A stretch of 10,240 nucleotides of DNA from a virus (taxonomy: Duplodnaviria; Heunggongvirae; Uroviricota; Caudoviricetes): positions 1 to 10,240 of the IMG/VR virus record IMGVR_UViG_2529292726_000022; one strand, written 5' to 3'. Positions 1-10,240 of the stretch are shown piece by piece (within the stretch, counting starts at the first letter, position 1; the number at the start of each line of letters is the position of its first letter). The position numbers and the translations under genes were made by a program. The notes below the pieces were generated by a model, which was not told where the DNA came from, ran no database searches, and saw only the letters and a list, made by a program, of their open reading frames with translations.

Positions 1-1820
1 CCACCGAGATCCAGCGTCAGGCGCAGCAGTTTGTCAGAACCTTCGACAAACTCCGCGTTTTCAATCAGCGCCACACGCAGGTCAACTTTGGCGAAGTCGT
101 CAAAGGTGATGGTTTCCTGAATCGGGTCGTCAGCCAGTGGGCCAGTTACCGGTGCAGCTGTGGCTTTCACTTCTTCTTTGGATGCTTCCACCAGTGCTTC
201 CACCTGTTTCATATCGATACGGTTATACAGTGCCTTGAACGGATTCACTTTATGGCCCAGCAGCGGTTGCTGGATACCATCCCAGGTCAGTTCTGTATTC
301 AGGAATGCTTCTGCACGTTCAGTCAGTTTCGGCAGTACCGGTTTCAGGTACGTCATCAGCACGCGGAACAGGTTAATGCCCATAGAGCAAATCGCCTGCA
401 GATCGGCATCGCGTCCTTCCTGCTTCGCCACCACCCACGGAGCCTGTTCATCAACATAGCGGTTAGCCAGGTCAGCCAGTGCCATGATTTCACGGATAGC
501 TTTGCCAAATTCGCGGCTTTCCCATGCTTCGCCAATCACTTCAGCGGCATCAGTAAAGGTTTTGTACAGTTGCGGGTCAGCCAGTTCGCTTGCCAGCACG
601 CCGTCAAAACGCTTGTTGATAAAGCCTGCATTACGGGAGGCCAGGTTAACCACTTTGTTAACGATATCGGCATTCACACGCTGAACGAAATCTTCCAGAT
701 TGAGATCGATATCATCAATGCGCGAAGAGAGTTTCGCAGTGTAGTAGTAACGCAGGCTGTCGGCGTCAAAATGATTCAGCCAGGTGCTGGCTTTAATAAA
801 GGTGCCGCGAGACTTGGACATCTTCGCGCCGTTCACCGTCACATAGCCGTGAACAAACAGGTTGGTCGGCTTGCGGAAGTTGCTGCCTTCCAGCATGGCA
901 GGCCAGAACAGGCTGTGGAAGTAAACGATATCTTTGCCGATGAAGTGGTACAGCTCGGCGGTGGAGTCTTTCTTCCAGTAATCGTCGAAGCTGGTAGTGT
1001 CGCCGCGTTTGTCGCACAGATTCTTGAAAGAACCCATGTAGCCAATCGGCGCGTCCAGCCAGACGTAGAAGTATTTGCCCGGTGCGTTCGGAATTTCAAA
1101 ACCGAAGTAAGGTGCGTCACGGGAGATATCCCACTGTTGCAGGCCAGATTCAAACCACTCCTGCATTTTGTTTGCCACCTGCTCCTGCAACGCACCGCTG
1201 CGGGTCCATGCCTGCAACATTTCGCTGAAAGAAGGCAGATCAAAGAAGAAGTGTTCGGAATCACGCATTACCGGTGTAGCGCCAGAAACCACTGATTTCG
1301 GCTCGATCAGTTCCGTCGGGCTGTATGTCGCGCCGCAGACTTCACAGTTATCGCCGTATTGATCCGGCGCTTTACATTTCGGGCATGTGCCTTTTACAAA
1401 ACGGTCCGGCAGGAACATGCCTTTTTCCGGGTCGTACAGCTGAGAGATGGTGCGGTTTTTAATAAAACCGTTCTCTTTCAGGCGAGTATAGATAAGCTCG
1501 GACAACTGACGGTTCTCTTCGCTGTGCGTCGAGTGATAGTTGTCATAGCTGATGTTAAAGCCTGCGAAATCAGTCTGATGTTCCTGACTCATTTCGCCAA
1601 TCATCTGCTCCGGTGTGATACCAAGCTGCTGTGCTTTCAGCATGATCGGCGTACCGTGGGCATCGTCGGCACAGATGAAATTAACCTCGTGGCCGCGCAT
1701 TCGCTGGTAACGAACCCAGACATCAGCCTGGATGTGCTCCAGCATATGGCCGAGGTGGATTGAGCCGTTAGCGTACGGCAGCGCGCACGTCACCAGAATT
1801 TTCTTCGCGACTTGGGTCAT
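1..1820 (-). CDS. metG: Methionine--tRNA ligase (MetRS), partial: N-terminal ~606 codons in window, C-terminus beyond window start
   Basis: Minus-strand translation from ATG (complement of 1818-1820) reads [29 protein letters not shown]... with the class I aaRS HLGH motif (encoded ~1746-1757) and KMSKS (encoded 810-824). The frame stays open to position 1, so it is absent from the ORF track (no stop in window). Plus-strand ORFs 160-459, 252-1295, 484-684 are antisense shadows. Confidence 0.95.
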
Positions 1821-1977
1821 AGTAGGCATTACTTCTTTGTAGTGAAAAGGGGCTTGATAGTAACAAAATGGCCTTATGTCTGCCATGTGATAACAGCATT
1901 TCTCATAAATGATTAAATGTCGTAGCTGGAGTACACTACAAGGCGACAATTGCGCAAATTAAAATAAAGGAGACGGG
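1821..1977. promoter_or_regulatory. Divergent metG / mrp intergenic promoter region
   Basis: 157-bp AT-rich gap between divergently oriented starts; SD-like AAGGAG at 1967-1972, 5 nt before the mrp ATG (1978). Individual -10/-35 elements not resolved by eye. Confidence 0.5.
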
Positions 1978-3078
1978 ATGAGCGAGTCCAAATCGCCGGA
2001 TGCCCTGAGAGCAATGGTAGCCGGTACGCTGGCTAATTTTCAGCACCCAACCCTGAAACACAACCTGACTACGCTTAAAGCGTTACACCATGTTGCGTTG
2101 ATGGATGACACACTGCATGTCGAACTAATCATGCCTTTCGTGTGGAATAAGCCTTTTGAAGACCTGAAAGAGCAATGTAGTGGTGATCTGCTCCGTATCA
2201 CTGGCGCAAAGGCTATTGACTGGAAGCTGTCGTACAACATTGCCACGCTTAAGCGCGTCAAAAACCAACCAGGCATTAATGGCGTTAAGAACATTATCGC
2301 CGTCAGCTCAGGCAAGGGCGGCGTGGGTAAATCCTCCACGGCGGTAAACCTGGCACTGGCGTTGGCTGCTGAAGGTGCGAAAGTTGGTATTTTGGATGCC
2401 GATATCTATGGTCCATCAATTCCAACCATGCTGGGCGCGGAAAACCAACGTCCAACCTCACCTGACGGTACTCACATGGCACCTATCATGTCTCATGGCC
2501 TGGCAACCAACTCTATTGGTTATCTGGTCACCGACGACAATGCAATGGTGTGGCGTGGACCGATGGCCAGCAAGGCGCTGATGCAGATGTTGCAGGAAAC
2601 TCTATGGCCTGATCTGGACTATCTCGTTCTCGATATGCCGCCGGGCACTGGTGATATTCAGTTGACGCTGGCGCAGAACATTCCTGTAACTGGTGCGGTT
2701 GTGGTAACTACGCCGCAAGACATCGCGCTGATCGATGCGAAGAAAGGCATTGTGATGTTCGAAAAAGTCGAAGTGCCGGTACTGGGTATCGTCGAAAACA
2801 TGAGTGTGCATATTTGCAGTAACTGCGGTCATCACGAGCCAATTTTTGGCACCGGTGGCGCACAGAAACTGGCCGAGAAATACAACACGCAGTTGTTAGG
2901 CCAAATGCCACTTCATATCTCTCTTCGTGAAGATCTGGATAACGGAACACCAACCGTTATTAGTCGTCCAGATAGCGAATTTACAGCTATTTATCGTGAC
3001 CTCGCAGATCGCGTTGCTGCCCAAATGTATTGGCAAGGTGAAGTAATACCTGGCGAAATCGCATTCCGCGCAGTGTGA
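1978..3078 (+). CDS. apbC: Fe-S cluster carrier ATPase Mrp/ApbC (NBP35 family)
   Basis: 366-aa ORF with SD; deviant Walker A SSGKGGVGKSST, CxxC motif (CSNCGH), and the MSESKSPDALRAMVAGTLANFQHP... N-terminus typical of enterobacterial Mrp; conserved divergent arrangement with metG. Confidence 0.95.
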   Translation: MSESKSPDALRAMVAGTLANFQHPTLKHNLTTLKALHHVALMDDTLHVELIMPFVWNKPFEDLKEQCSGDLLRITGAKAIDWKLSYNIATLKRVKNQPGINGVKNIIAVSSGKGGVGKSSTAVNLALALAAEGAKVGILDADIYGPSIPTMLGAENQRPTSPDGTHMAPIMSHGLATNSIGYLVTDDNAMVWRGPMASKALMQMLQETLWPDLDYLVLDMPPGTGDIQLTLAQNIPVTGAVVVTTPQDIALIDAKKGIVMFEKVEVPVLGIVENMSVHICSNCGHHEPIFGTGGAQKLAEKYNTQLLGQMPLHISLREDLDNGTPTVISRPDSEFTAIYRDLADRVAAQMYWQGEVIPGEIAFRAV

Positions 3079-3083
3079 TAAAA

Positions 3084-3104
3084 AGGCGGTGCATTGCACC
3101 GCCT
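3084..3104. terminator. GC-rich hairpin (aggcggtgc-att-gcaccgcct) between convergent mrp and UmuD'-like gene
   Basis: 9-bp perfect stem, 3-nt loop. On the minus strand it is followed by TTTTTAT (complement of 3077-3083), a good intrinsic terminator for the minus-strand gene ending at 3116. On the plus strand it is preceded by AAAA but lacks a U-tract. Confidence 0.6.
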
Positions 3105-3115
3105 AATCAGTTCTC

Positions 3116-3505
3116 CTACATCACGGGACAATCATCAAACTCGCCACTTCTTGCGTCGTTGATAATGTGAGTGATCACACCAAACACGGCATTGCTGCCC
3201 GTGCATGCATCGTCATCCTTTGGCAATGCTTCCTTCTTACCGGTTCTTAAATCCTCCAGATGCTGACGTGGGTACTTCCGGTATCTTTTTACGCGATATT
3301 CCCCATCCAGAGCGCATACAAGCAGAGAACCATCAACCGGGGTAAGTGAGGAATCGACCACCAGCAATGCACCCTGTAATATTCCCTCACGATGATGACT
3401 ATCAGCTGCCCTCATGAAGTAGGTCGCTGAAGGATGTCTAATTATCTGCTGATCAAGAGAAATACGGCTCTCAGCATAATCCGCCGCAGGAGAAGGGAAG
3501 CCCAT
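3116..3505 (-). CDS. UmuD-family S24 peptidase, natively N-terminally truncated (UmuD'-like), 129 aa
   Basis: Starts MGFPSPAADYAESRISLDQQIIRHPSATYF..., co-linear with UmuD from the residue after its Cys24-Gly25 self-cleavage site. Ser of the Ser-Lys dyad retained (AADSH vs UmuD SGDSM), Lys retained (VKRYR vs VKKLQ). In-frame TAA 12 nt upstream of the ATG (complement of 3518-3520) rules out an N-terminal extension. SD AAGAGG precedes ATG. No umuC-like gene follows. Confidence 0.8.
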   Translation of the reverse strand: MGFPSPAADYAESRISLDQQIIRHPSATYFMRAADSHHREGILQGALLVVDSSLTPVDGSLLVCALDGEYRVKRYRKYPRQHLEDLRTGKKEALPKDDDACTGSNAVFGVITHIINDARSGEFDDCPVM

Positions 3506-3521
3506 AATACTCGCCTCTTAA

Positions 3522-3541
3522 CACTGTATATACATACAGTA
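3522..3541 (-). promoter_or_regulatory. LexA operator (SOS box)
   Basis: Minus-strand TACTGTATGTATATACAGTG: CTGT-N8-ACAG palindrome matching the consensus TACTGTATATATATACAGTA at 17/20, about 16 nt upstream of the UmuD'-like start codon, the same geometry as the E. coli umuDC operator. Confidence 0.8.
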
Positions 3542-3566
3542 TATGTTGAAGCTATATATTTTTGAA
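3538..3566 (-). promoter_or_regulatory. Putative sigma70 promoter of the UmuD'-like gene, overlapped by the LexA box
   Basis: Minus-strand -35 TTCAAA (complement of 3561-3566), 17-nt spacer, -10 TATACT (complement of 3538-3543); the -10 overlaps the upstream half of the LexA box. Confidence 0.5.
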
Positions 3567-3725
3567 CTCTATCTCTTAAAAAAGATGTTAATAAGATGCT
3601 AACTATTGAAAGGCATAAATATATACAATTCCAACAAACGTTATTTTTAACAAATTTTTTCTCTCCGTTGACTTTTGCGAAAGCCTTGTCTGGCCTAAAT
3701 TGCGCGGAAGCTACTTTTTCCTTAC

Positions 3726-3750
3726 AGAGTTATCCACAGAGTTATGCACT
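3726..3750 (+). repeat. Tandem 12-bp repeat containing DnaA-box-like 9-mers
   Basis: agagTTATCCAC / agagTTATGCAC in direct tandem (3726-3737, 3738-3749). TTATCCACA at 3730-3738 is a perfect DnaA box consensus; TTATGCACT at 3742-3750 matches TTATNCACA at 8/9. Confidence 0.3.
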
Positions 3751-3836
3751 TGCATGTATAACCTATACACACTATCTTAATTCGCAAGACACTGATGTTG
3801 CGGTATTGAAGGTTCATTGGGTTAAAAATAGACATT

Positions 3837-3867
3837 AAAAAGCCCAGTTGACTAGGCTGGGCTTTTT
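3837..3867. terminator. Bidirectional intrinsic terminator hairpin
   Basis: AAAAAGCCCAG-(9-nt loop)-CTGGGCTTTTT: 11-bp perfect inverted repeat with an A-tract 5' and T-tract 3', so it is U-tract-flanked on both strands. No confident CDS ends at it on either strand. Confidence 0.65.
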
Positions 3868-3900
3868 AAAAGGAAACAGAGTTTGCGGCTCTGTTCCTGA

Positions 3901-3920
3901 GCCATAAGTATCTGGCGACT
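3901..3920 (+). repeat. Direct repeat copy 1 (gccaTAAGTATCTGGCGACT)
   Basis: 20-bp sequence repeated at 4074-4093 with one mismatch (16-bp identical core TAAGTATCTGGCGACT at 3905-3920 and 4078-4093). Confidence 0.7.
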
Positions 3921-4073
3921 GAATTAAGATTAACCGAATGTACTGGATTCATCAAGAAACGTTGAGTGGTCATACCAGGTAATAATGACCATTTACTAAA
4001 CATCGTTGTTCTCAAAGAAGATTTAAGTCCAGGTTTTTGGTGACTCTAAAACCTTACCTTAACTCGAAATCGT

Positions 4074-4093
4074 GCCGTAAGTATCTGGCGACT
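4074..4093 (+). repeat. Direct repeat copy 2 (gccgTAAGTATCTGGCGACT)
   Basis: Second copy, 173 bp downstream of copy 1; preceded by AAATCGTGCCG (4066-4076), which recurs inside the small ORF at 4189-4199. Confidence 0.7.
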
Positions 4094-4167
4094 ACAGATA
4101 TTGCAACTGCAAAGGCAAGCCCAAAGGTATTTGCAGCTAGGCGCGATAAAACTAAGTGAGGCCTGTT

Positions 4168-4251
4168 ATGGTTAACTTACTGTTCAAAATCGTGCCGCCG
4201 ATGTTCGCGATTATCAAAGCGATCATTGAGTACGTAAACCAGCGTCCATAA
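4168..4251 (+). CDS. Candidate small hydrophobic protein, 27 aa (MVNLLFKIVPPMFAIIKAIIEYVNQRP)
   Basis: ATG at 4168 preceded by SD-like GTGAGG with 6-nt spacing; stop TAA 4249-4251; terminator hairpin 14 nt downstream. Peptide is mostly hydrophobic with a charged C-terminal tail. Too short for the ORF track. Confidence 0.3.
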   Translation: MVNLLFKIVPPMFAIIKAIIEYVNQRP

Positions 4252-4264
4252 CGCTAGTTGCTAC

Positions 4265-4297
4265 AGGCCCCATCAAGAGCATGGGGCCTCTTTATCG
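4265..4297 (+). terminator. Hairpin (aggcccca-N9-tggggcct) plus CTTTAT tract downstream of small ORF
   Basis: 8-bp GC-rich perfect stem followed by a short T-rich tract on the plus strand. On the minus strand it sits 18 nt past the stop of the operon's last gene (4307) but has no U-tract in that direction. Confidence 0.5.
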
Positions 4298-4306
4298 TAC
4301 TATTGC

Positions 4307-4933
4307 TTATTTTTTACGGACTGAGTTGTTCACTGCTCTGGCAATCTTCTCCCGCAATTGCTGCGTTCCGTGGTACTGAACCGCAATATCTCTCAACTCG
4401 TTCACCAGTTCTCGAATCTGGTGATCTTTAAGCTCATTATTTGGGTGATTGGTAACAACTCTGGTTAATTCACCCTTGTCTTTTGCTCTTACGTATGCAG
4501 CTCTTGTGCATTCGACCCATGTATTACCGCCTACATTAACTTCGTAGATTAGGCTGGACTTATCTGTCAATTCGGAACAAATACGGGCCGTGGTCTGGCA
4601 ACTAGAGCATTCGCAGTTATCGCGGAAACCGTGATCTACCGGTCGAGAAAGAGGTTTAACTTTTTCATCCAACTTCATCACAGCATCGTGATAAGCGTTC
4701 CAGCCGTCATCTTTACCAAGTTGATAAATCTCTGAAGGCTCCATGTAGTCTATATCGCAACCTTCTTCATCCGATCTATCTGGTCGCTTCCCTGGTAATC
4801 GCTCATAAAAACGATTTCTGTCTCGACGTTCGGCTCTCAGTGCTAACGCAAGAAGTTGCTCAAGCGAGGTATTTGCACCAGCAATAATTTCATTGAGAAT
4901 ATCTTCTGTGAGATCTTTCGCTACCGTGCTCAT
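4307..4933 (-). CDS. Hypothetical protein, 208 aa (last gene of operon)
   Basis: Long minus-strand ORF; ATG (complement 4931-4933) overlaps the stop of the upstream gene (ATGA); contains a Cys cluster (CECSSCQ). No recognisable family by eye. Confidence 0.7.
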   Translation of the reverse strand: MSTVAKDLTEDILNEIIAGANTSLEQLLALALRAERRDRNRFYERLPGKRPDRSDEEGCDIDYMEPSEIYQLGKDDGWNAYHDAVMKLDEKVKPLSRPVDHGFRDNCECSSCQTTARICSELTDKSSLIYEVNVGGNTWVECTRAAYVRAKDKGELTRVVTNHPNNELKDHQIRELVNELRDIAVQYHGTQQLREKIARAVNNSVRKK

Positions 4934-5313
4934 TTATCTCTCTCAGTATGTTGCGATGGCGTAAATTTGACGACATCAAATATTTTGGATGGCATCAACT
5001 TTATCCGCGAGCTTAGTTCGGCTCTTCTCTGTAATGCGGTTAATAATGTTTTCGTTCTGACGCCTTCGTGTATCCTCATCCCTGGCACAAGAACTACATC
5101 GCAGGGGAGATGCTCAGGTGACAAATCATTTTGGGCATCGCTAATCAGTCGTGTAATCTCTCTTTCAAGCCGACCGCCTAGCTCTGTTTTAGTGCAATGT
5201 TCTGACCAATCGCCAGCCTCAAGCAGCGCGAGAATGCTTAAAATATCGTCCAATAGATCAGTGGTATTATCGACTTCCTTCTGAAGCTCACCGGCTACTG
5301 ATTTATGCATCAT
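4930..5313 (-). CDS. Hypothetical protein, 127 aa
   Basis: Minus-strand ORF starting ATGATG (MMHKS...), start overlaps stop of upstream gene (ATGA at 5310-5313). Confidence 0.7.
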   Translation of the reverse strand: MMHKSVAGELQKEVDNTTDLLDDILSILALLEAGDWSEHCTKTELGGRLEREITRLISDAQNDLSPEHLPCDVVLVPGMRIHEGVRTKTLLTALQRRAELSSRIKLMPSKIFDVVKFTPSQHTERDK

Positions 5314-5963
5314 TCGTCATCCTCATCCGAGTCATCCTCATCACAGGATGAGAGTAGTGGGTTAGTCATTCGCCCTACTTGAGTGGCATAGCCACGCCGA
5401 CAGAGATTGCGCAGCACACTGTATATTTCGAACATCTCGGTTCGTTCATCGCCAACATCAAGCTCAGATGCTATAGCGTGGCATTCAGTCGCGAGAGCCG
5501 ATATTTTCTGAAATAACTCTGCATTATTCACTGTTCGACTCCTGCGGCGTTCTGGTAGTGGCATCCAGTGTGTGGCATTGCTAATCAGACCATATTCATT
5601 AGTTTGAGGATGGTTGCCGTTATCGTCTCCGTATTTAAGACTCTCCATAAAGCCATAATGCCTATCACCATTAACGCTCACAAAGCCGTAATAAGCAGGT
5701 ATAACGCCGATCTCACACATAACCAGTAACGGAAAACTAGTTCTCCAATTTAGCTCGCCAATTACAGGCATTCGCTCACTACAGCTTATCCAACCATCCT
5801 TAGATGCGGCTGTATTGGCATAGGCCTTACGGTGCTTCTGTAGCTCTGCTGCAATCGCTCTCACGACTTCAACTGGTGCCCTTGCAGCAAACTCAATGTT
5901 GGTGATCAGCTCATTAAGATATTTCTCGCTTGGGTAGCATTTCTTATTGTTAACGGTGGTCAT
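5310..5963 (-). CDS. Hypothetical phage-type protein, possible DUF551-like domain, acidic C-terminal tail, 217 aa
   Basis: Minus-strand ORF; motifs DGWISCSERMPV ... ATHWMPLPE resemble the W-I-S-x-x-x-R-(L/M)-P ... HWMPLP signature I associate with prophage DUF551 proteins (memory-based). Ends in DEDDSDEDDE. Start ATG overlaps upstream stop (TAATG). Confidence 0.7.
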   Translation of the reverse strand: MTTVNNKKCYPSEKYLNELITNIEFAARAPVEVVRAIAAELQKHRKAYANTAASKDGWISCSERMPVIGELNWRTSFPLLVMCEIGVIPAYYGFVSVNGDRHYGFMESLKYGDDNGNHPQTNEYGLISNATHWMPLPERRRSRTVNNAELFQKISALATECHAIASELDVGDERTEMFEIYSVLRNLCRRGYATQVGRMTNPLLSSCDEDDSDEDDE

Positions 5964-6148
5964 TAGGCAGCTCTCTCAACAACAAGCAATTCGTCGTAGT
6001 CATAATCAGTTTCGGAACCATCCGTACCGAACAGAGTCACTTTGTCATTTTCCATCCAAAAAGATTTAACCGCACATTGTTGACCTTTAGATGTTATGAG
6101 CACATCACCAGGGATTACGTCTTCAGCGCGAACCTCTAGTGTTCTCAT
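5963..6148 (-). CDS. Hypothetical small protein, 61 aa (MRTLEVRAEDVIPGDVL...)
   Basis: The ORF track starts at a TTG (6184) inside the upstream gene; the ATG at complement 6146-6148 has a strong SD (AAAGAGGG) about 7 nt upstream and lies 4 nt after the upstream TAG, so is preferred. Confidence 0.6.
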   Translation of the reverse strand: MRTLEVRAEDVIPGDVLITSKGQQCAVKSFWMENDKVTLFGTDGSETDYDYDELLVVERAA

Positions 6149-6152
6149 CGTG

Positions 6153-6566
6153 CTAACCCTCTTTGGTGAAAACGCCTGATGCAATACTGTTTATGATGCT
6201 GTCAGTACAGGGAGTAGAAAGCTGGGCATCTCCAGCTATTTTCATGACTTCGACATCCGCATATCGAATACCGAGGTGTATCAGACCTGCTATACCTGAC
6301 TTAAGTCGAACATTTTCCATAAACAGATCCTTTTCCCGCTGTTTAACGGTCTCCAGCTCAACACGCAACTTCTCAATTTCGGCAGCCATGTAGTAACCAA
6401 CCATAGCGAATACGGCAAAAGAGTTGTCTGCCTCATCAGGCGACACTGAGGCCATTAGCAGACCATCGTAATAATCGTGACTCCCATTGGTGATCGCCAC
6501 CGCATAGGAGTCGTGGTTCTCACGCTTGTGAATGAGAACTACGGGGTTTTCGATTTTGTTACTCAT
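6153..6566 (-). CDS. Hypothetical protein, 137 aa
   Basis: Minus-strand ORF with ATG at complement 6564-6566, preceded by AAGAGAAAAACAC; central charged segment (EIEKLRVELETVKQREKDLFMENVRLK) suggests a helical/coiled region. Confidence 0.7.
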   Translation of the reverse strand: MSNKIENPVVLIHKRENHDSYAVAITNGSHDYYDGLLMASVSPDEADNSFAVFAMVGYYMAAEIEKLRVELETVKQREKDLFMENVRLKSGIAGLIHLGIRYADVEVMKIAGDAQLSTPCTDSIINSIASGVFTKEG

Positions 6567-6704
6567 GTGTTTTTCTCTTCTTTGCTGTTACATAAGCACT
6601 ACCAAGTGCTGGTTTATTTTCACAAATAAGAAAAGGTAGAAAACAATTTATTTAAGGCCACAACTTATGGCCTTTATTTATTCATGCCGAAGGATTTGTA
6701 GCGT

Positions 6705-7085
6705 CTAATTGCCGGATAAAATGGGGTGAGGTGCTTGCCAGTAGGCTCCACCGGTCCATGTGAACCCCATGCGAATAAGAGGGTTTATTGCGGCTTTGGT
6801 AGACTCCGATTCGACACTGGCTTTTCGAAACTCTTGAACCTCTTTCGCCAACCTGTATGTAATTGTGCAGGGGACGATTGCAGCCCAGCCTTTCTCATGA
6901 CTGTTAATGACCATCTGGATGTGACCATCCAGAATAGGTTGATTAGGCATGTTATTGAAAACGTCTGCCTGTTTTTGAATGTGAATAAAAAGCCTTGCCA
7001 GCTCCATTTGCTCACTACGAGACAAGGGATTATCAAGAGGGCTTTTTGCAAAAGCGGCTATACGCTGTGCGTCAATGCCAAACAT
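6705..7085 (-). CDS. Hypothetical protein, 126 aa
   Basis: Minus-strand ORF; ATG overlaps the stop of the upstream gene by 1 nt (TGATG at 7083-7087). Confidence 0.7.
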   Translation of the reverse strand: MFGIDAQRIAAFAKSPLDNPLSRSEQMELARLFIHIQKQADVFNNMPNQPILDGHIQMVINSHEKGWAAIVPCTITYRLAKEVQEFRKASVESESTKAAINPLIRMGFTWTGGAYWQAPHPILSGN

Positions 7086-7789
7086 CAGCGCACCTCACCA
7101 TCTTTATGGCTGGAGTTAACTTCCGCCATTAAATGTCTGACGTAATCGACAAGAGAGCCACCTGGTGGAATCTGGCATTCCTCAACTAACTGGAAGTAGA
7201 TATCCGCTGCATTACGTGTATTGCTACCCGCACATATTCTTTCTTCCCGAAGTGCATGAAGCTCGTTGATCAAACGGTCACACTCTCCGTTACGCTGATC
7301 CACAACGGCCTCAAGCTCTGCGACGCGTTCACCTGGCGTCTTACCTTCTTTGCGTTGGATGGTAACGACGAAATCGCCAATTGCAGGGACGTTGTAATCC
7401 AGCTCAAGGTAGTTTTTGGCACCGCTGCGGACGAACTCACCCGCGAACATGGTGGCGAACATCGCAGAGGCCACTTCGCCGTTGAAAAGTGACTCAAGAT
7501 CTAACGGAGTCCCGGCAGCAAGAGCCTCTTTTGCTGTATCCATTGCATCCATGAACCGATCAAACTCACTAGCGCGCTTTTCCATGTCTTTCCATTGCTC
7601 GCTCCAACGTTTGGCAACGAAGTCTATGAATGTTTTCGCGGATTCATCAAAATTCCCCTCAAACTTAACGATGCCTTTATCAATAATAATCTGGCCTACC
7701 GCATCCTCTGCATAACCTTTCAATGTAAACTTGAAAGGAAAATCAGAATGGCCTGTGACGTTAAAATGCTCTAACTGGAGGTTGTTCAT
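7085..7789 (-). CDS. Hypothetical protein, 234 aa
   Basis: Minus-strand ORF with ATG at complement 7787-7789, preceded by the same AAGAGAAAAACAC initiation region as the 6153-6566 gene. Confidence 0.7.
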   Translation of the reverse strand: MNNLQLEHFNVTGHSDFPFKFTLKGYAEDAVGQIIIDKGIVKFEGNFDESAKTFIDFVAKRWSEQWKDMEKRASEFDRFMDAMDTAKEALAAGTPLDLESLFNGEVASAMFATMFAGEFVRSGAKNYLELDYNVPAIGDFVVTIQRKEGKTPGERVAELEAVVDQRNGECDRLINELHALREERICAGSNTRNAADIYFQLVEECQIPPGGSLVDYVRHLMAEVNSSHKDGEVR

Positions 7790-7850
7790 GTGTTTTTCTC
7801 TTATCGTTTAGTTACTACATTCTTACACAAATTAAGTAAGTATTTACCTA

Positions 7851-9536
7851 TCATTTAACGCGTTTGAAAACGTATACGCTGACTGTGATCCCGGTATCTT
7901 CAAACTCGTTGGTAAACGACTTCCCTCTGGCATAAACGTAATTATCCATCGTCATCCAGTCCAGTATTGGCGCAGTGCCCGGCAATACTGCTACAAGACG
8001 CCCGCCGACTTTCAGATGCCCCAGCGCAGCCAGCGTGTGCTCTCTATGACGACCAAGCGAGTACGGCGGGTTCATAACGATTTTGTCGAACTGATAACCT
8101 GCGTTGTCCTCAGACCACTTTATGAAGTCGCAGCAAATCGTGTTCGTATACCCTTTTCCACGCAGGATATCAGCGAAGAGAGGTGCGATTTCTATGCAGG
8201 TAACATCTTCCAGATCGGCGTTAATATAGGCCAGAAGATCCCCACGTCCGGCTTGAGGCTCCAGCAGCTTCTCACCAGGCTTCAATTCAGTGGCTCTGGC
8301 AACGTACTCAGCAATCAAGCGTGGGGTAGGGTAGAACTGGTGTGATTTTGTATCCGGTATTAAACCGGTAGCCACAATCGTATTTAGCGTATGGCCGATG
8401 TCATACGGGAACTGCCAGTGCTTTTTCTCCTGCACGCCGCCAATGAAGCTCAGTGTGCGCTCAAGCTCTTCCACCTGCGACTTCTGGAGAGCTGAATCAG
8501 AGAAGTACCATACGCCTTTGTCTTTGCTCAATCGCCCGTCACGAAGCGCAGTGCGAACCGGCACGGAGATCGTCTTCTGGATTAACCCGAACTGCTTTGG
8601 TGCCCGTGTTTTTGGCGCAGTTCGGCATGGCGCGGGAATTGCAGCAGGCATACTGTAAGCCAGCACCTCATTCAACTTCCAGGCCACGTCAGGATGTATT
8701 TCAAAGTGAACGTTGCCGTTCTTGAACATCTTCACGCGCATCAGATTTCCATCGACGTTCATCCAGTCACCGGTCTGGCAGTCGTTTGCCCGATACGCAG
8801 CTGATAGCACCTCAGCAGTGCGGTTGATGGTAATAAATTCTTTGTGCGCGAAGAAATGAAGCAAGACACGCAGATCGTCGATGTAGTCCTCTTTGCGATA
8901 GTTCACGCTAACGCTGTCCCGCCAGAAATCAGAAATGCAGTCAGCGATTATCAGACGCTCGCTGAAACCGTTTGTCTTATTTGTCTTGTGCGCAGGACTC
9001 AGCGCCTTAAACAAGCCATACACGCGCTCAGAGAGATATTTGTGCCTGTCATTCAGCAAATTAAGCATCGTGGGTATGACCGTTTCTGCTTTGAACTCCG
9101 GTACACCAACGAACTCTTTAACCTTCATCTGGTAGCCGGTTCTGTCAGTTTTGATGACTTCCTGTTTGCCCTCTATAAACTGCTCGCGCCACTCATCTCG
9201 ACGGGAAGCTGGCATGATCAGCAAAACGTTAGTCATGTCCGTGACCTTCCTCCAGTACTCGGCCCAAATATTCTGTTTCACCCATTCCAGATCGACTTTA
9301 TCCAACCAACCTCGATTTAAACGCGAGCGATCTTCATCTGGTCGATGGTTTAGTCTCAGCAGGCGATTAATCATGTTGTGGCGTTCGTCGCCATAAACGA
9401 AGTCGTGTACCTGATACATGAAGGCGATCTCTTTCTCGCACTCGGCCACGATTTCGTGGATGACATTCATTTCCTGACGATAGTCGATAGCCGTGTTTGA
9501 GCTGGCATCGTCGCTGATGGAAAGGGCTGTATTCAT
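7851..9536 (-). CDS. 561-aa protein: ~380-aa N-terminal region of unknown function plus C-terminal gamma-class N6-adenine (amino) methyltransferase domain
   Basis: Motif order FYPTP (motif X-like), LEPQAGRGD (motif I; EPQAGRGD encoded 8238-8261), ~55 aa, then MNPPY (motif IV, encoded 8061-8072), typical of gamma-class amino-MTases. Only ~70 aa follow NPPY, so no obvious C-terminal target-recognition domain. First gene of the operon. Confidence 0.8.
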   Translation of the reverse strand: MNTALSISDDASSNTAIDYRQEMNVIHEIVAECEKEIAFMYQVHDFVYGDERHNMINRLLRLNHRPDEDRSRLNRGWLDKVDLEWVKQNIWAEYWRKVTDMTNVLLIMPASRRDEWREQFIEGKQEVIKTDRTGYQMKVKEFVGVPEFKAETVIPTMLNLLNDRHKYLSERVYGLFKALSPAHKTNKTNGFSERLIIADCISDFWRDSVSVNYRKEDYIDDLRVLLHFFAHKEFITINRTAEVLSAAYRANDCQTGDWMNVDGNLMRVKMFKNGNVHFEIHPDVAWKLNEVLAYSMPAAIPAPCRTAPKTRAPKQFGLIQKTISVPVRTALRDGRLSKDKGVWYFSDSALQKSQVEELERTLSFIGGVQEKKHWQFPYDIGHTLNTIVATGLIPDTKSHQFYPTPRLIAEYVARATELKPGEKLLEPQAGRGDLLAYINADLEDVTCIEIAPLFADILRGKGYTNTICCDFIKWSEDNAGYQFDKIVMNPPYSLGRHREHTLAALGHLKVGGRLVAVLPGTAPILDWMTMDNYVYARGKSFTNEFEDTGITVSVYVFKRVK

Positions 9537-9577
9537 AATTACACCATTAAATAATTTGTTTTCTGATTGGTGTAATT
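9537..9577. promoter_or_regulatory. Perfect 9-bp inverted repeat abutting the methyltransferase start codon
   Basis: AATTACACC-N23-GGTGTAATT (9537-9545 / 9569-9577) directly adjacent to the ATG at 9536, so on the mRNA it covers the ribosome-binding region. Candidate operator or 5'-UTR stem-loop. Confidence 0.4.
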
Positions 9578-9633
9578 ATCGCAAACTTGAAAAGGCATAA
9601 AAGCTGCATTCATAGGCGTTACAGCAGATTTAA

Positions 9634-9660
9634 GGCGTAAAAATGGGGGCTGTCGCCCCC
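9634..9660 (-). terminator. Intrinsic terminator of the small gene 9678-9914
   Basis: Minus-strand GGGGGC-GACA-GCCCCC hairpin (9645-9660) followed by ATTTTTAC, 18 nt past the stop codon. Confidence 0.6.
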
Positions 9661-9677
9661 TGTCGACTGGTGCTGTA

Positions 9678-9914
9678 TTAGAGTGCGTATTGCGTTTTGT
9701 GCGGCTGCTTATTCAAGTCATGGCGATGCGTGAGCTCCCGCATCATGTCTTCAAGGCGACTCTTTGTGTCGTCGAGCTGGTCGGCCATTGCACCTAAAAG
9801 CTGGCGAACGGCCATCGGATCGTCGCTGTTTAGTGATGGCATTTTAGAACCTGCTTTAGAAGACATAAGGTTGATTGCAGACATCAACATCGTTAGAGAG
9901 GTATTAGACGTCAA
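9678..9914 (-). CDS. Hypothetical small protein (up to 78 aa; true start uncertain)
   Basis: Minus-strand ORF with its own terminator. The track start is a TTG; internal ATGs (MLMSAINL..., MPSLNSDD...) are alternative starts. The 5' end abuts the presumed IS21-family terminus, so it may be the 3' remnant of a disrupted gene. Confidence 0.45.
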   Translation of the reverse strand: MTSNTSLTMLMSAINLMSSKAGSKMPSLNSDDPMAVRQLLGAMADQLDDTKSRLEDMMRELTHRHDLNKQPHKTQYAL

Positions 9915-9918
9915 CTAG

Positions 9919-10240
9919 TTTTGCCGACTCGCGCCAACTATACTGGCCGCACCCTTCAGTGCGACATCAAGTCGCGCTTGTTACTGCCTTCGCTGTCTTT
10001 TTCCTGTAGCTTTCACCTTTCAGTTCGAACATATATCCGTGATGGATCAGCCGGTCTGCCGCCGCCACCGCCATAGTCTCATCCACGAAGATGCTGCCCC
10101 ACATGCTGAACGGATGGTTACTGGTTATCACCAGGCTCCCACGTTCATAGCGATGCGCTATTAACTCGAACAGTACTCCCGTTTCGGCGCTGTCGCGTTT
10201 GACATAGCCAAGATCATCCACCACTATCACCCGGTAGCGA
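9919..10240 (-). mobile_element. IS21-family insertion sequence, istB-proximal end (partial; exact terminus not determined)
   Basis: Inferred from the istB fragment; the terminal inverted repeat should lie in about 9919-9966, downstream of the istB stop, but I could not identify it by eye. Confidence 0.55.
9967..10240 (-). CDS. istB: IS21-family transposition helper ATPase IstB, C-terminal part (5' end beyond window)
   Basis: ...IVVDDLGYVKRD...LFELIAHRYERGSLVITSNHPFSMWGSIFVDETMAVAAADRLIHHGYMFELKGESYRKK... matches the IstB Walker B-to-C-terminus signature (D-D/E-L-G-Y, RYE, TSN, DRLxHH, ELKGESYR). The track's M at 10230 is internal. Confidence 0.9.
   Translation of the reverse strand, partial: RYRVIVVDDLGYVKRDSAETGVLFELIAHRYERGSLVITSNHPFSMWGSIFVDETMAVAAADRLIHHGYMFELKGESYRKKTAKAVTSAT

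Follow-up and report, generated by a model that had tools for sequence, protein, structure and literature searches.

A perfect inverted repeat framing an operator-like motif at the start of an orphan methyltransferase operon in an SSU5-like phage-plasmid

Why should the start of a phage DNA methyltransferase gene be enclosed in a perfect inverted repeat? The question is raised by a stretch of 10,240 nucleotides from a virus of the Caudoviricetes, positions 1 to 10,240 of the IMG/VR record IMGVR_UViG_2529292726_000022 (hereafter the window), in which a methyltransferase gene on the minus strand is the first gene of an operon and its start codon abuts such a repeat. Our analysis suggests that the repeat is the outer frame of a cassette of promoter, operator and ribosome-binding site (RBS) for the methylase operon, and that this cassette is reused before about 15 operons of the phage-plasmid. 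Positions 9300-9960 of the window were 100% identical to the E. coli plasmid CP025888.1, the same stretch from 9300 to about 9901-9905 was 99.8% identical to many E. coli plasmids about 110 kb in size, and the region 9300-9960 was 83.6% identical to Salmonella phage SSU5. To judge from these identities, the window is part of an E. coli SSU5-like phage-plasmid. SSU5-like phage-plasmids are widespread, among them pHCM2, pLF82/Cyrano and many plasmids of about 110 kb in Klebsiella, E. coli and Enterobacter, and bear resistance and virulence cargo. The literature that we searched held no account of gene regulation in SSU5-like phage-plasmids. For genome-wide scans we used the annotated sister plasmid CP056250.1 (112.6 kb), with SSU5 as a second genome.

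An earlier reading of the window from its sequence only had noted a 9-bp inverted repeat at this site, and AATTACACC (9537-9545) and GGTGTAATT (9569-9577) are indeed exact reverse complements, 23 nt apart. The perfect arms are longer than first noted, reaching 12 nt at 9535-9546 and 9568-9579 with a 21-nt spacer. In the sense of the gene, the 5' arm ATAATTACACCA (9568..9579, minus strand) comprises the last five bases of a -10-like hexamer and the discriminator TACACCA, and the 3' arm TGGTGTAATTAT (9535..9546, minus strand) carries a GGTG resembling a Shine-Dalgarno (SD) sequence (9545-9542) and terminates in the A and T (9536-9535) of the ATG at 9536-9534, the start of the open reading frame (ORF) 7851-9536. 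The repeat therefore covers the ribosome-binding region of the operon's first gene, as had been claimed, and the statement that this gene has no free SD was essentially right: the GGTG within the 3' arm is the sole SD-like sequence before the ATG. Perfect inverted repeats of at least 12 bp with a loop of 3-40 nt occurred in 1.7% of 300 first-order Markov shuffles of the window. CP056250.1 held 26 perfect repeats of at least 10 bp, mostly terminator-like. A search of 9300-10000 against Rfam found no family, the only match being snoR9 at chance level (E = 0.65; 14.9 bits against a gathering score of 90).

The spacer of the repeat holds an operator-like 16-nt motif, AGAAAACAAATTATTT (9549..9564, minus strand), which was recognised by scanning CP056250.1 and which the sequence-only reading had missed. 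The motif family has the consensus AGAAAACAAnTTGTTT with the palindromic core AAACAAnTTGTTT. CP056250.1 carries 8 exact copies and 15 with at most one mismatch, and SSU5 carries 6 and 18, respectively; from Markov shuffles, 0 to 0.07 copies with at most one mismatch were expected. The copies are intergenic, mostly in the sense of the gene, and are followed after 11-35 nt by an ATG that has a normal SD. The operons that they head include those for recombination/SSB, DnaB helicase, ParA, NrdB and a CobT-like gene, as well as the small terminase (with two tandem copies), a 188-amino acid (aa) gene, the methylase and several small genes. The 3' arm of the methylase repeat stands where other modules carry AAGGA-type SDs. 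We found no mention of this motif in the literature searched.

In an alignment of 33 sites, the sole strongly conserved upstream block was tAAT, located 10-11 nt before the motif, often as part of TGnGATAAT and followed by aACACCAA. The motif keeps a fixed distance to this -10-like box, whereas anything from 11 to 35 nt separates it from the ATG, and it is therefore tied to the promoter and not to the RBS. Before the methylase gene, a predicted extended -10, TGcGATAAT, occupies 9575..9583 on the minus strand (TG 9583-9582, hexamer 9580-9575); it was read from the sequence and is conserved in paralogues and orthologues, with TGnGATAAT, TGaAATAAT and TGgGAAAAT as the orthologue versions. Transcription of the methylase gene is predicted to start at A9568/A9567, 2-4 nt before the motif, and across the modules the motif would span about +3 to +19 of sigma-70 promoters. 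We consider it very probable that the motif is a functional cis-element. It offers a handle on which operons may be co-regulated, among them those for replication, recombination, nucleotide metabolism, the small terminase and the methylase, and points to the place where their regulator would bind.

A second copy of the motif in the window (6638..6653, plus strand) is inverted relative to the genes and follows the terminator hairpin of the methylase operon (about 6655-6675). It lies about 16 nt upstream of the extended -10 TGTGAAAAT (about 6613-6621, minus strand) of the gene 6153-6566, and so sits over the -35 region; the same layout, aaaaggtAGAAAAC, was also found in CP056250.1 and SSU5. At 81104-81167 of CP056250.1 (L077 ~31104-31167), a 16-bp perfect inverted repeat consists of two motif copies, 48 bp apart, which bracket a TGAGATAAT promoter in a divergent or double-operator arrangement. 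Inverted copies over -35 regions and a promoter flanked by two copies fit a DNA operator, as would be bound by a dimeric regulator, and there is a reasonable case that the motif is the operator of a repressor. Regulation most probably acts at the loop motif. The position of the motif resembles that of downstream operators of the lac O1 type, as a palindromic site centred at about +11 to +13 of a sigma-70 promoter, but unlike lac O1 it is present in many copies, some of them additional copies over -35 regions.

What, then, do the arms add? An RNA of 76 nt with both arms folded at -14.6 kcal/mol (z = -3.2) with a 12-bp hairpin as the dominant structure, and the GGUG and the AU of the AUG were paired in both the minimum-free-energy and the centroid folds of RNA containing the 5' arm. 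A 140-nt read-through RNA also formed this hairpin. RNAs beginning at 9571 or 9567 formed no hairpin (-5.3 kcal/mol, z of about +0.6). Since the predicted start lies at about 9568-9567, the native mRNA would lack the 5' arm and with it the hairpin. Folding of the 5' region, a check that the sequence-only reading had suggested, thus bears out one half of its proposal that a stem-loop in the 5' untranslated region (UTR) gates translation: as RNA, the two arms do bury GGUG/AU, but the predicted start excludes the 5' arm from the native mRNA. That reading had also named a start downstream of the repeat, combined with mutations of the repeat having no effect on expression, as the outcome that would speak against it, and the predicted start comes near to the first of these, leaving the 5' arm outside the transcript, as a prediction only.

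We tentatively favour a mechanism in which the loop operator governs transcription, and pairing of the arms is confined to read-through RNA and blocks translation there, as in the insertion sequence (IS) IS10. Transcription of the methylase operon would be controlled chiefly by a phage regulator bound at the loop operator. The mRNA from the operon's own promoter would lack the 5' arm, which consists of -10 and discriminator sequence, and would leave the weak SD GGUG and the AUG free. RNA from upstream, which would have passed a leaky terminator and in this plasmid would also come out of the insertion sequence ISEc10, would contain both arms. Such RNA would fold into the 12-bp hairpin, burying the GGUG and the AU of the AUG, so that the methylase would not be made from foreign transcripts. 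In IS10 and IS50 the element's own promoter lies within the repeat and the native mRNA lacks the 5' arm, so that only read-through transcripts fold and are untranslatable. This fold-back inhibition of transposase translation was reportedly described by Davis, Simons and Kleckner in 1985 and by Krebs and Reznikoff in 1986. The methylase repeat is alike in that its 3' arm covers the SD and the AUG; a promoter of its own within the repeat is predicted here. It differs in that the gene is a phage methyltransferase and not a transposase, in that the loop holds a genome-wide operator, and in that both the start site and the effect on translation are predictions, with a strong design in E. coli lineages only.

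The same hairpin could instead belong to the native 5' UTR if transcription started upstream of the 5' arm, in which case it would gate every methylase mRNA until a helicase, temperature or a ribosome opened it. The hairpin is stable and buries the relevant bases, our scan found no canonical -35/-10 pair to fix the start site, and the phage encodes a DEAD-box helicase. However, judging from the tAAT block, whose spacing to the motif is fixed across 33 modules, transcription probably starts where the 5' arm has its 3' end, nothing promoter-like is conserved between the terminator and the arm across lineages, and the upstream sequence of the Cyrano type is unrelated. We regard this explanation as quite unlikely. 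Between the terminator and the -10 box (9597-9640, minus strand) there are three A(C/T)GCCT(T/A) words, about 20 nt apart, and a similar 'GCCTT' was seen upstream of several other modules; these words could be an element upstream of the promoter, or no more than the tails of terminators.

If pairing of the arms matters, it should be kept as their sequences change. Our comparison of the arms took in 71 related IMG/VR and GTDB loci, a further 9 loci from metagenomes, 3 phage records and 12 plasmids. The plasmids were chosen across the range of identity and gave back known groups only; the metagenome pattern scan was loose, and the 9 loci recognised in it as genuine brought no new arm variants. 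A separate scan of genome contigs gave 3 loci. In the window type, 12/12 arm positions pair. The Cyrano type (E. coli LF82 pLF82, Shigella) has ATAATTGCACCA/TGGTGCAATTAT, a compensated change of A-T to G-C, and its arms are perfect over 16 bp around a 12-nt loop (-19 kcal/mol), with the right half of the loop motif lost. L070 and pYPE3 carry a further compensated change, T-A to A-T, and L042 (80% protein identity) has AAACCA/TGGTTT, in which C-G is replaced by A-U, also compensated, together with one U.G pair. TGGTG was invariant in 28 of the 29 distinct homologous upstream regions, L042 having the sole change. All four one-sided transitions in near-perfect lineages (L018, L055/L065, L046, L042) give G.U in the sense RNA (p of about 0.06). 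The inner CACCA/UGGUG pairing is kept family-wide, and the probability that the SD is paired is about 0.7 even in weak lineages. In a formal covariation count, 83% of cells were paired and double changes affected 3 pairs, with a covariation score that was matched by 2 of 500 shuffles. From these comparisons, selection for arm pairing is plausible in the E. coli lineages; it is not established family-wide.

At 3 of the 33 modules the motif is flanked by a repeat of 10 bp or more whose 5' arm falls on the -10, compared with 0.2% of cross-paired controls. In SSU5, one such 10-bp repeat lies at 56845 (L080 ~6845; TTCCGTATTA/TAATACGGAA), with its 3' arm about 70 nt from the next gene start, and another at 94522 (L080 ~44522; GTAGCGATAA/TTATCGCTAC), with its 3' arm in codons 3-6.

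Alternatively, the complementarity of the arms may be without function: the 5' arm would be kept as a promoter (-10 and discriminator) and the 3' arm as an AT-rich RBS that contains GGUG, and the perfect arms of the E. coli lineages would be a product of template switching and drift. The sequence of the 5' arm, GATAATnACACCAA, is found again at paralogous promoters that lack a partner arm, and imperfect pairing in most lineages and the pair-type counts given below are also as this explanation would have them. Against it stand the rarity of so long a perfect repeat in shuffled windows, the three separate compensatory events, the lineage that has reached 16 bp while its loop diverges, the compensation on the other arm of the only TGGTG change, in L042, and the enrichment around the motif of repeats of 10 bp or more. 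We consider functionless arms a credible but doubtful explanation.

Several observations weigh against fold-back of read-through RNA, the reading that we favour. The SSU5, Salmonella, Enterobacter, Citrobacter and Klebsiella groups, which are numerically dominant, have only 8-9/12 pairs with 2-3 central mismatches, and their hairpins are weak (-5 to -7 kcal/mol). The pair-type measures, including the 3 double changes, are not above shuffles, and overall covariation is modest. Quasi-palindrome correction by template switching during replication can also produce compensatory changes without selection. The lineage of the window already has a good terminator upstream of the repeat. A strict scan for sigma-70 -35/-10 pairs found no promoter, and the predicted start site rests on conservation, not on mapping. 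The repeat at SSU5 56845, with its 3' arm off the RBS, hints at a role at the level of DNA. Furthermore, the cI-like XRE repressor, which we considered as the motif binder, was rejected: the divergent control region of its own gene carries GGTAAGnnCTTACC in place of the motif.

A role at the level of DNA is the essence of another explanation, in which the arms are half-sites for a dimeric or tetrameric regulator (a C-protein-like or other phage factor, or the methylase itself) that occludes the -10 and start region. The symmetry is perfect, the arms are 33 bp apart centre to centre, or about three helical turns, and symmetric changes in both arms are also expected of co-evolving half-sites. 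About 390 N-terminal residues of the methylase have no assigned function, the repeat at SSU5 56845 flanks the motif away from the RBS, and RNA of the Cyrano-type methylase is low despite a degenerate loop motif. However, the half-sites are asymmetric in most lineages although the methylase is 86-93% identical across them, the one-sided changes favour G.U in the sense RNA, and Pfam detects no helix-turn-helix (HTH) in the methylase, where only DUF4942 was found within the N-terminal 390 or so residues. No paired copies of the arm 9-mer or 12-mer were found elsewhere in the 112-kb sister plasmid, and the 9-mer has no further copies in the window beyond chance. We regard half-sites as a doubtful explanation.

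One further repeat in CP056250.1, at 74928-74962 (L077 ~24928-24962), has the form CATAATCACA-N15-TGTGATTATG with an arm one base off the methylase 3' arm; it is found in a stretch of 600 bp in which no genes are annotated, and the ATG there runs straight into a stop codon. With no other paired copies in 112 kb, and no ORF following this one, we rejected the arms as a repeated protein site.

Control by a C protein, as in restriction-modification (R-M) systems, was the form in which the sequence-only reading had cast a regulator at this site. C-protein operons share with this locus a symmetric DNA element before an operon that contains a methyltransferase. We found no C gene, C-box or restriction enzyme here, the methylase is an orphan, and the regulator that had been proposed is a truncated gene fragment; we therefore rejected this reading. 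A C-box-like GACTnnnAGTC was absent from 9537-9660, and the three matches with one mismatch elsewhere in the window are at chance level. No cognate restriction endonuclease was found in the operon with Pfam, phrog or PADLOC. Autoregulation is known for M.SsoII, M.EcoRII and M.MspI, which are C5 methyltransferases of R-M systems, have an N-terminal HTH and act at a compact repeat of 15 bp. There too an inverted repeat overlaps the methyltransferase promoter and start; unlike those systems, the enzyme here is an orphan N6-adenine methylase with no Pfam HTH, and the 12-bp arms are 33 bp apart.

The proposed regulator was the product of a small ORF just upstream, 9678-9914. Translation comparison with intact relatives showed this to be the 3' remnant, 73 codons and a stop (9678..9899, minus strand), of a 188-aa hypothetical gene (phrog_5508). 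The first 5 codons of the listed ORF are non-native, and its start lies within an insertion sequence. In uninterrupted relatives the upstream gene encodes 188-190 aa (L001 4379-4945; SSU5_094); the intact protein is acidic and coiled-coil-like, and no HTH and no family above threshold was found in it with Pfam, NCBIfam or PADLOC. Homology to uninterrupted plasmids ends at 9901-9905, and the terminal part of the IS21-family element ISEc10 occupies 9902..10240 (minus strand), the window ending within the element. The C-terminus of IstB is encoded at 9967-10230 (Pfam IstB_IS21), and E. coli copies that are 100% identical are annotated as 'IS21-like element ISEc10 family helper ATPase IstB'. Direct 18-mer repeats at 9909-9926 and 9932-9949 lie in the ISEc10 end (span 9909-9949), and we take these to be the multiple terminal repeats typical of IS21-family ends. 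The upstream ORF, the last 73 codons of a protein cut by ISEc10, cannot be a functional regulator in this plasmid, and as a stump made by the element it was rejected in that role. The repeat is identical in plasmids whose upstream gene is intact. The istAB genes are oriented towards the methylase, and read-through into the methylase region would in this plasmid emerge from ISEc10.

The claim that the small upstream gene has its own terminator did hold. A predicted intrinsic terminator, GGGGGCGACAGCCCCC followed by ATTTTT (9645..9660, minus strand), ends the upstream gene and is conserved in SSU5. Taken as a whole, the sequence-only reading was right that the RBS is masked in RNAs with both arms, and failed in its C-protein analogy and its candidate regulator.

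The lineages also bear on a last arrangement, two face-to-face promoters that share one operator, in which CATAAT and TACACCA, the 3' arm as read on the plus strand and a mirror of the sense -10 and discriminator, would drive a short RNA antisense to roughly the first 25 nt of methylase mRNA, like pIN/pOUT of IS10. The core of the loop motif is palindromic, and CATAAT is present on the plus strand (9534-9539 in the window) in the window, Cyrano and Klebsiella types and in L042. However, in the SSU5, Enterobacter and Salmonella types the sequence is CATGAT, which makes a poorer -10, the spacing to the motif is 7 nt as opposed to the module rule of 10 nt, and the predicted antisense RNA would not cover GGUG/AUG. 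This arrangement appears very unlikely.

Published expression data for E. coli LF82 allow a look at the methylase in the plasmid state. There, in figures that come from a different lineage from the window (the Cyrano type) and rest on low counts, the methylase gene CYRAN_90 was near the detection floor in culture, with log2(fpkm+5) of 2.8-3.4, the upstream gene CYRAN_89 reached 5.2-6.5, roughly 10-fold above the methylase in some conditions, and the putative repressor CYRAN_45 was about 10-fold above background (PMC9928086 S1 Table). No intrinsic terminator was predicted between CYRAN_89 and CYRAN_90. The data are in keeping with silence of the methylase in the plasmid state and with loss of read-through RNA across the hairpin, for example by polarity. 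Fold-back protection, if true, would account for the silence of a potentially harmful orphan methylase in the plasmid state, and would be a second example, outside insertion sequences, of such protection from outside transcription. The mechanisms that we propose are of known kinds; they alter no general principle and amount to fairly ordinary phage gene control.

Which protein might bind the motif? Candidates are an SSU5_116-like protein with a weak HTH_60 match, an FljA-like PF03614 protein and ParB-like proteins; in SSU5 a small HTH candidate is divergent from a motif-bearing promoter. The FljA-like protein, a full-length 'repressor of phase-1 flagellin' (PF03614, 3e-80), is encoded at L077 22624-23148 (plus strand) and as SSU5_121 (L080 46897-47343, minus strand). 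The leader of Salmonella fliC carries CAAGTTGT beside its SD, and the likeness of this sequence to the motif core gives a tentative lead. FljA blocks translation of fliC mRNA (PMC2652032). The phage protein might target host flagellin or the phage motif. The divergent region between the cI-like XRE repressor and the integrase of CP056250.1 (L076 17150-17430) contains GGTAAGnnCTTACC-type palindromes and no 16-nt motif, which suggests, on the distribution of the two elements, two separate regulatory layers.

The phage-plasmid P1 offers a comparison for a regulon of this kind. Its C1 repressor acts at more than 14 operators, each an asymmetric 17-mer. The present system is alike in being a phage-plasmid with one short motif at many scattered promoters, through which a single factor would control many operons, but its motif combines a palindromic core of 13 bp with an oriented extension on the 5' side, is placed strictly about 10 nt after the -10, and is distinct from the palindrome carried by the cI-like repressor locus. 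The widest form of our proposal, which we think unlikely as a whole, is a previously undescribed genome-wide regulon acting through AGAAAACAAnTTGTTT at about +3 to +19 of 15-20 promoters, possibly with a factor such as the FljA-like protein, whose homologue in Salmonella binds the leader of fliC mRNA close to the SD, together with a fold-back lock that would limit the methylase to firing of its own promoter in lytic growth.

The gene at 7851..9536 (minus strand) encodes an orphan phage DNA methyltransferase of 561 aa. DUF4942 (Pfam, 1.7e-20) covers residues 140-295, and phrog_6263, 'DNA methyltransferase', matched over the full length (2e-299). Matches to N6_Mtase and Eco57I were sub-threshold and that to M.TaqI was weak; PADLOC matched MTase_II/mad2 to residues 394-523. 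In the C-terminal domain of the translation we read LEPQAGRG, the S-adenosylmethionine (SAM)-binding motif I, and the catalytic NPPY (as NPPYS). By these domain and motif assignments the product is a SAM-dependent N6-adenine methyltransferase. PADLOC and profile searches found no restriction or defence families among its neighbours, the sole PADLOC match being the methylase itself, and it is therefore an orphan phage methylase. The downstream genes of the operon belong to phage families of no assigned function (phrog_8364, phrog_10451, DUF551), and no terminator, promoter or motif module was found between the methylase and the next gene.

Positions 1-3078 of the window hold chromosome-type housekeeping genes as cargo on the phage-plasmid: a metG-like gene (minus strand) that runs past the start of the window, and apbC/mrp (1978-3078, plus strand). 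In CP056250.1, metG/apbC adjoin an FdeC adhesin gene, while the window has different phage genes between apbC and the methylase. An ORF of 129 aa (3116-3505, minus strand) matches Peptidase_S24 (UmuD/LexA-type) over the C-terminal protease part only (profile positions 8-86). A perfect 13-bp inverted repeat with a 9-nt loop lies at 3835-3869 and is intergenic.

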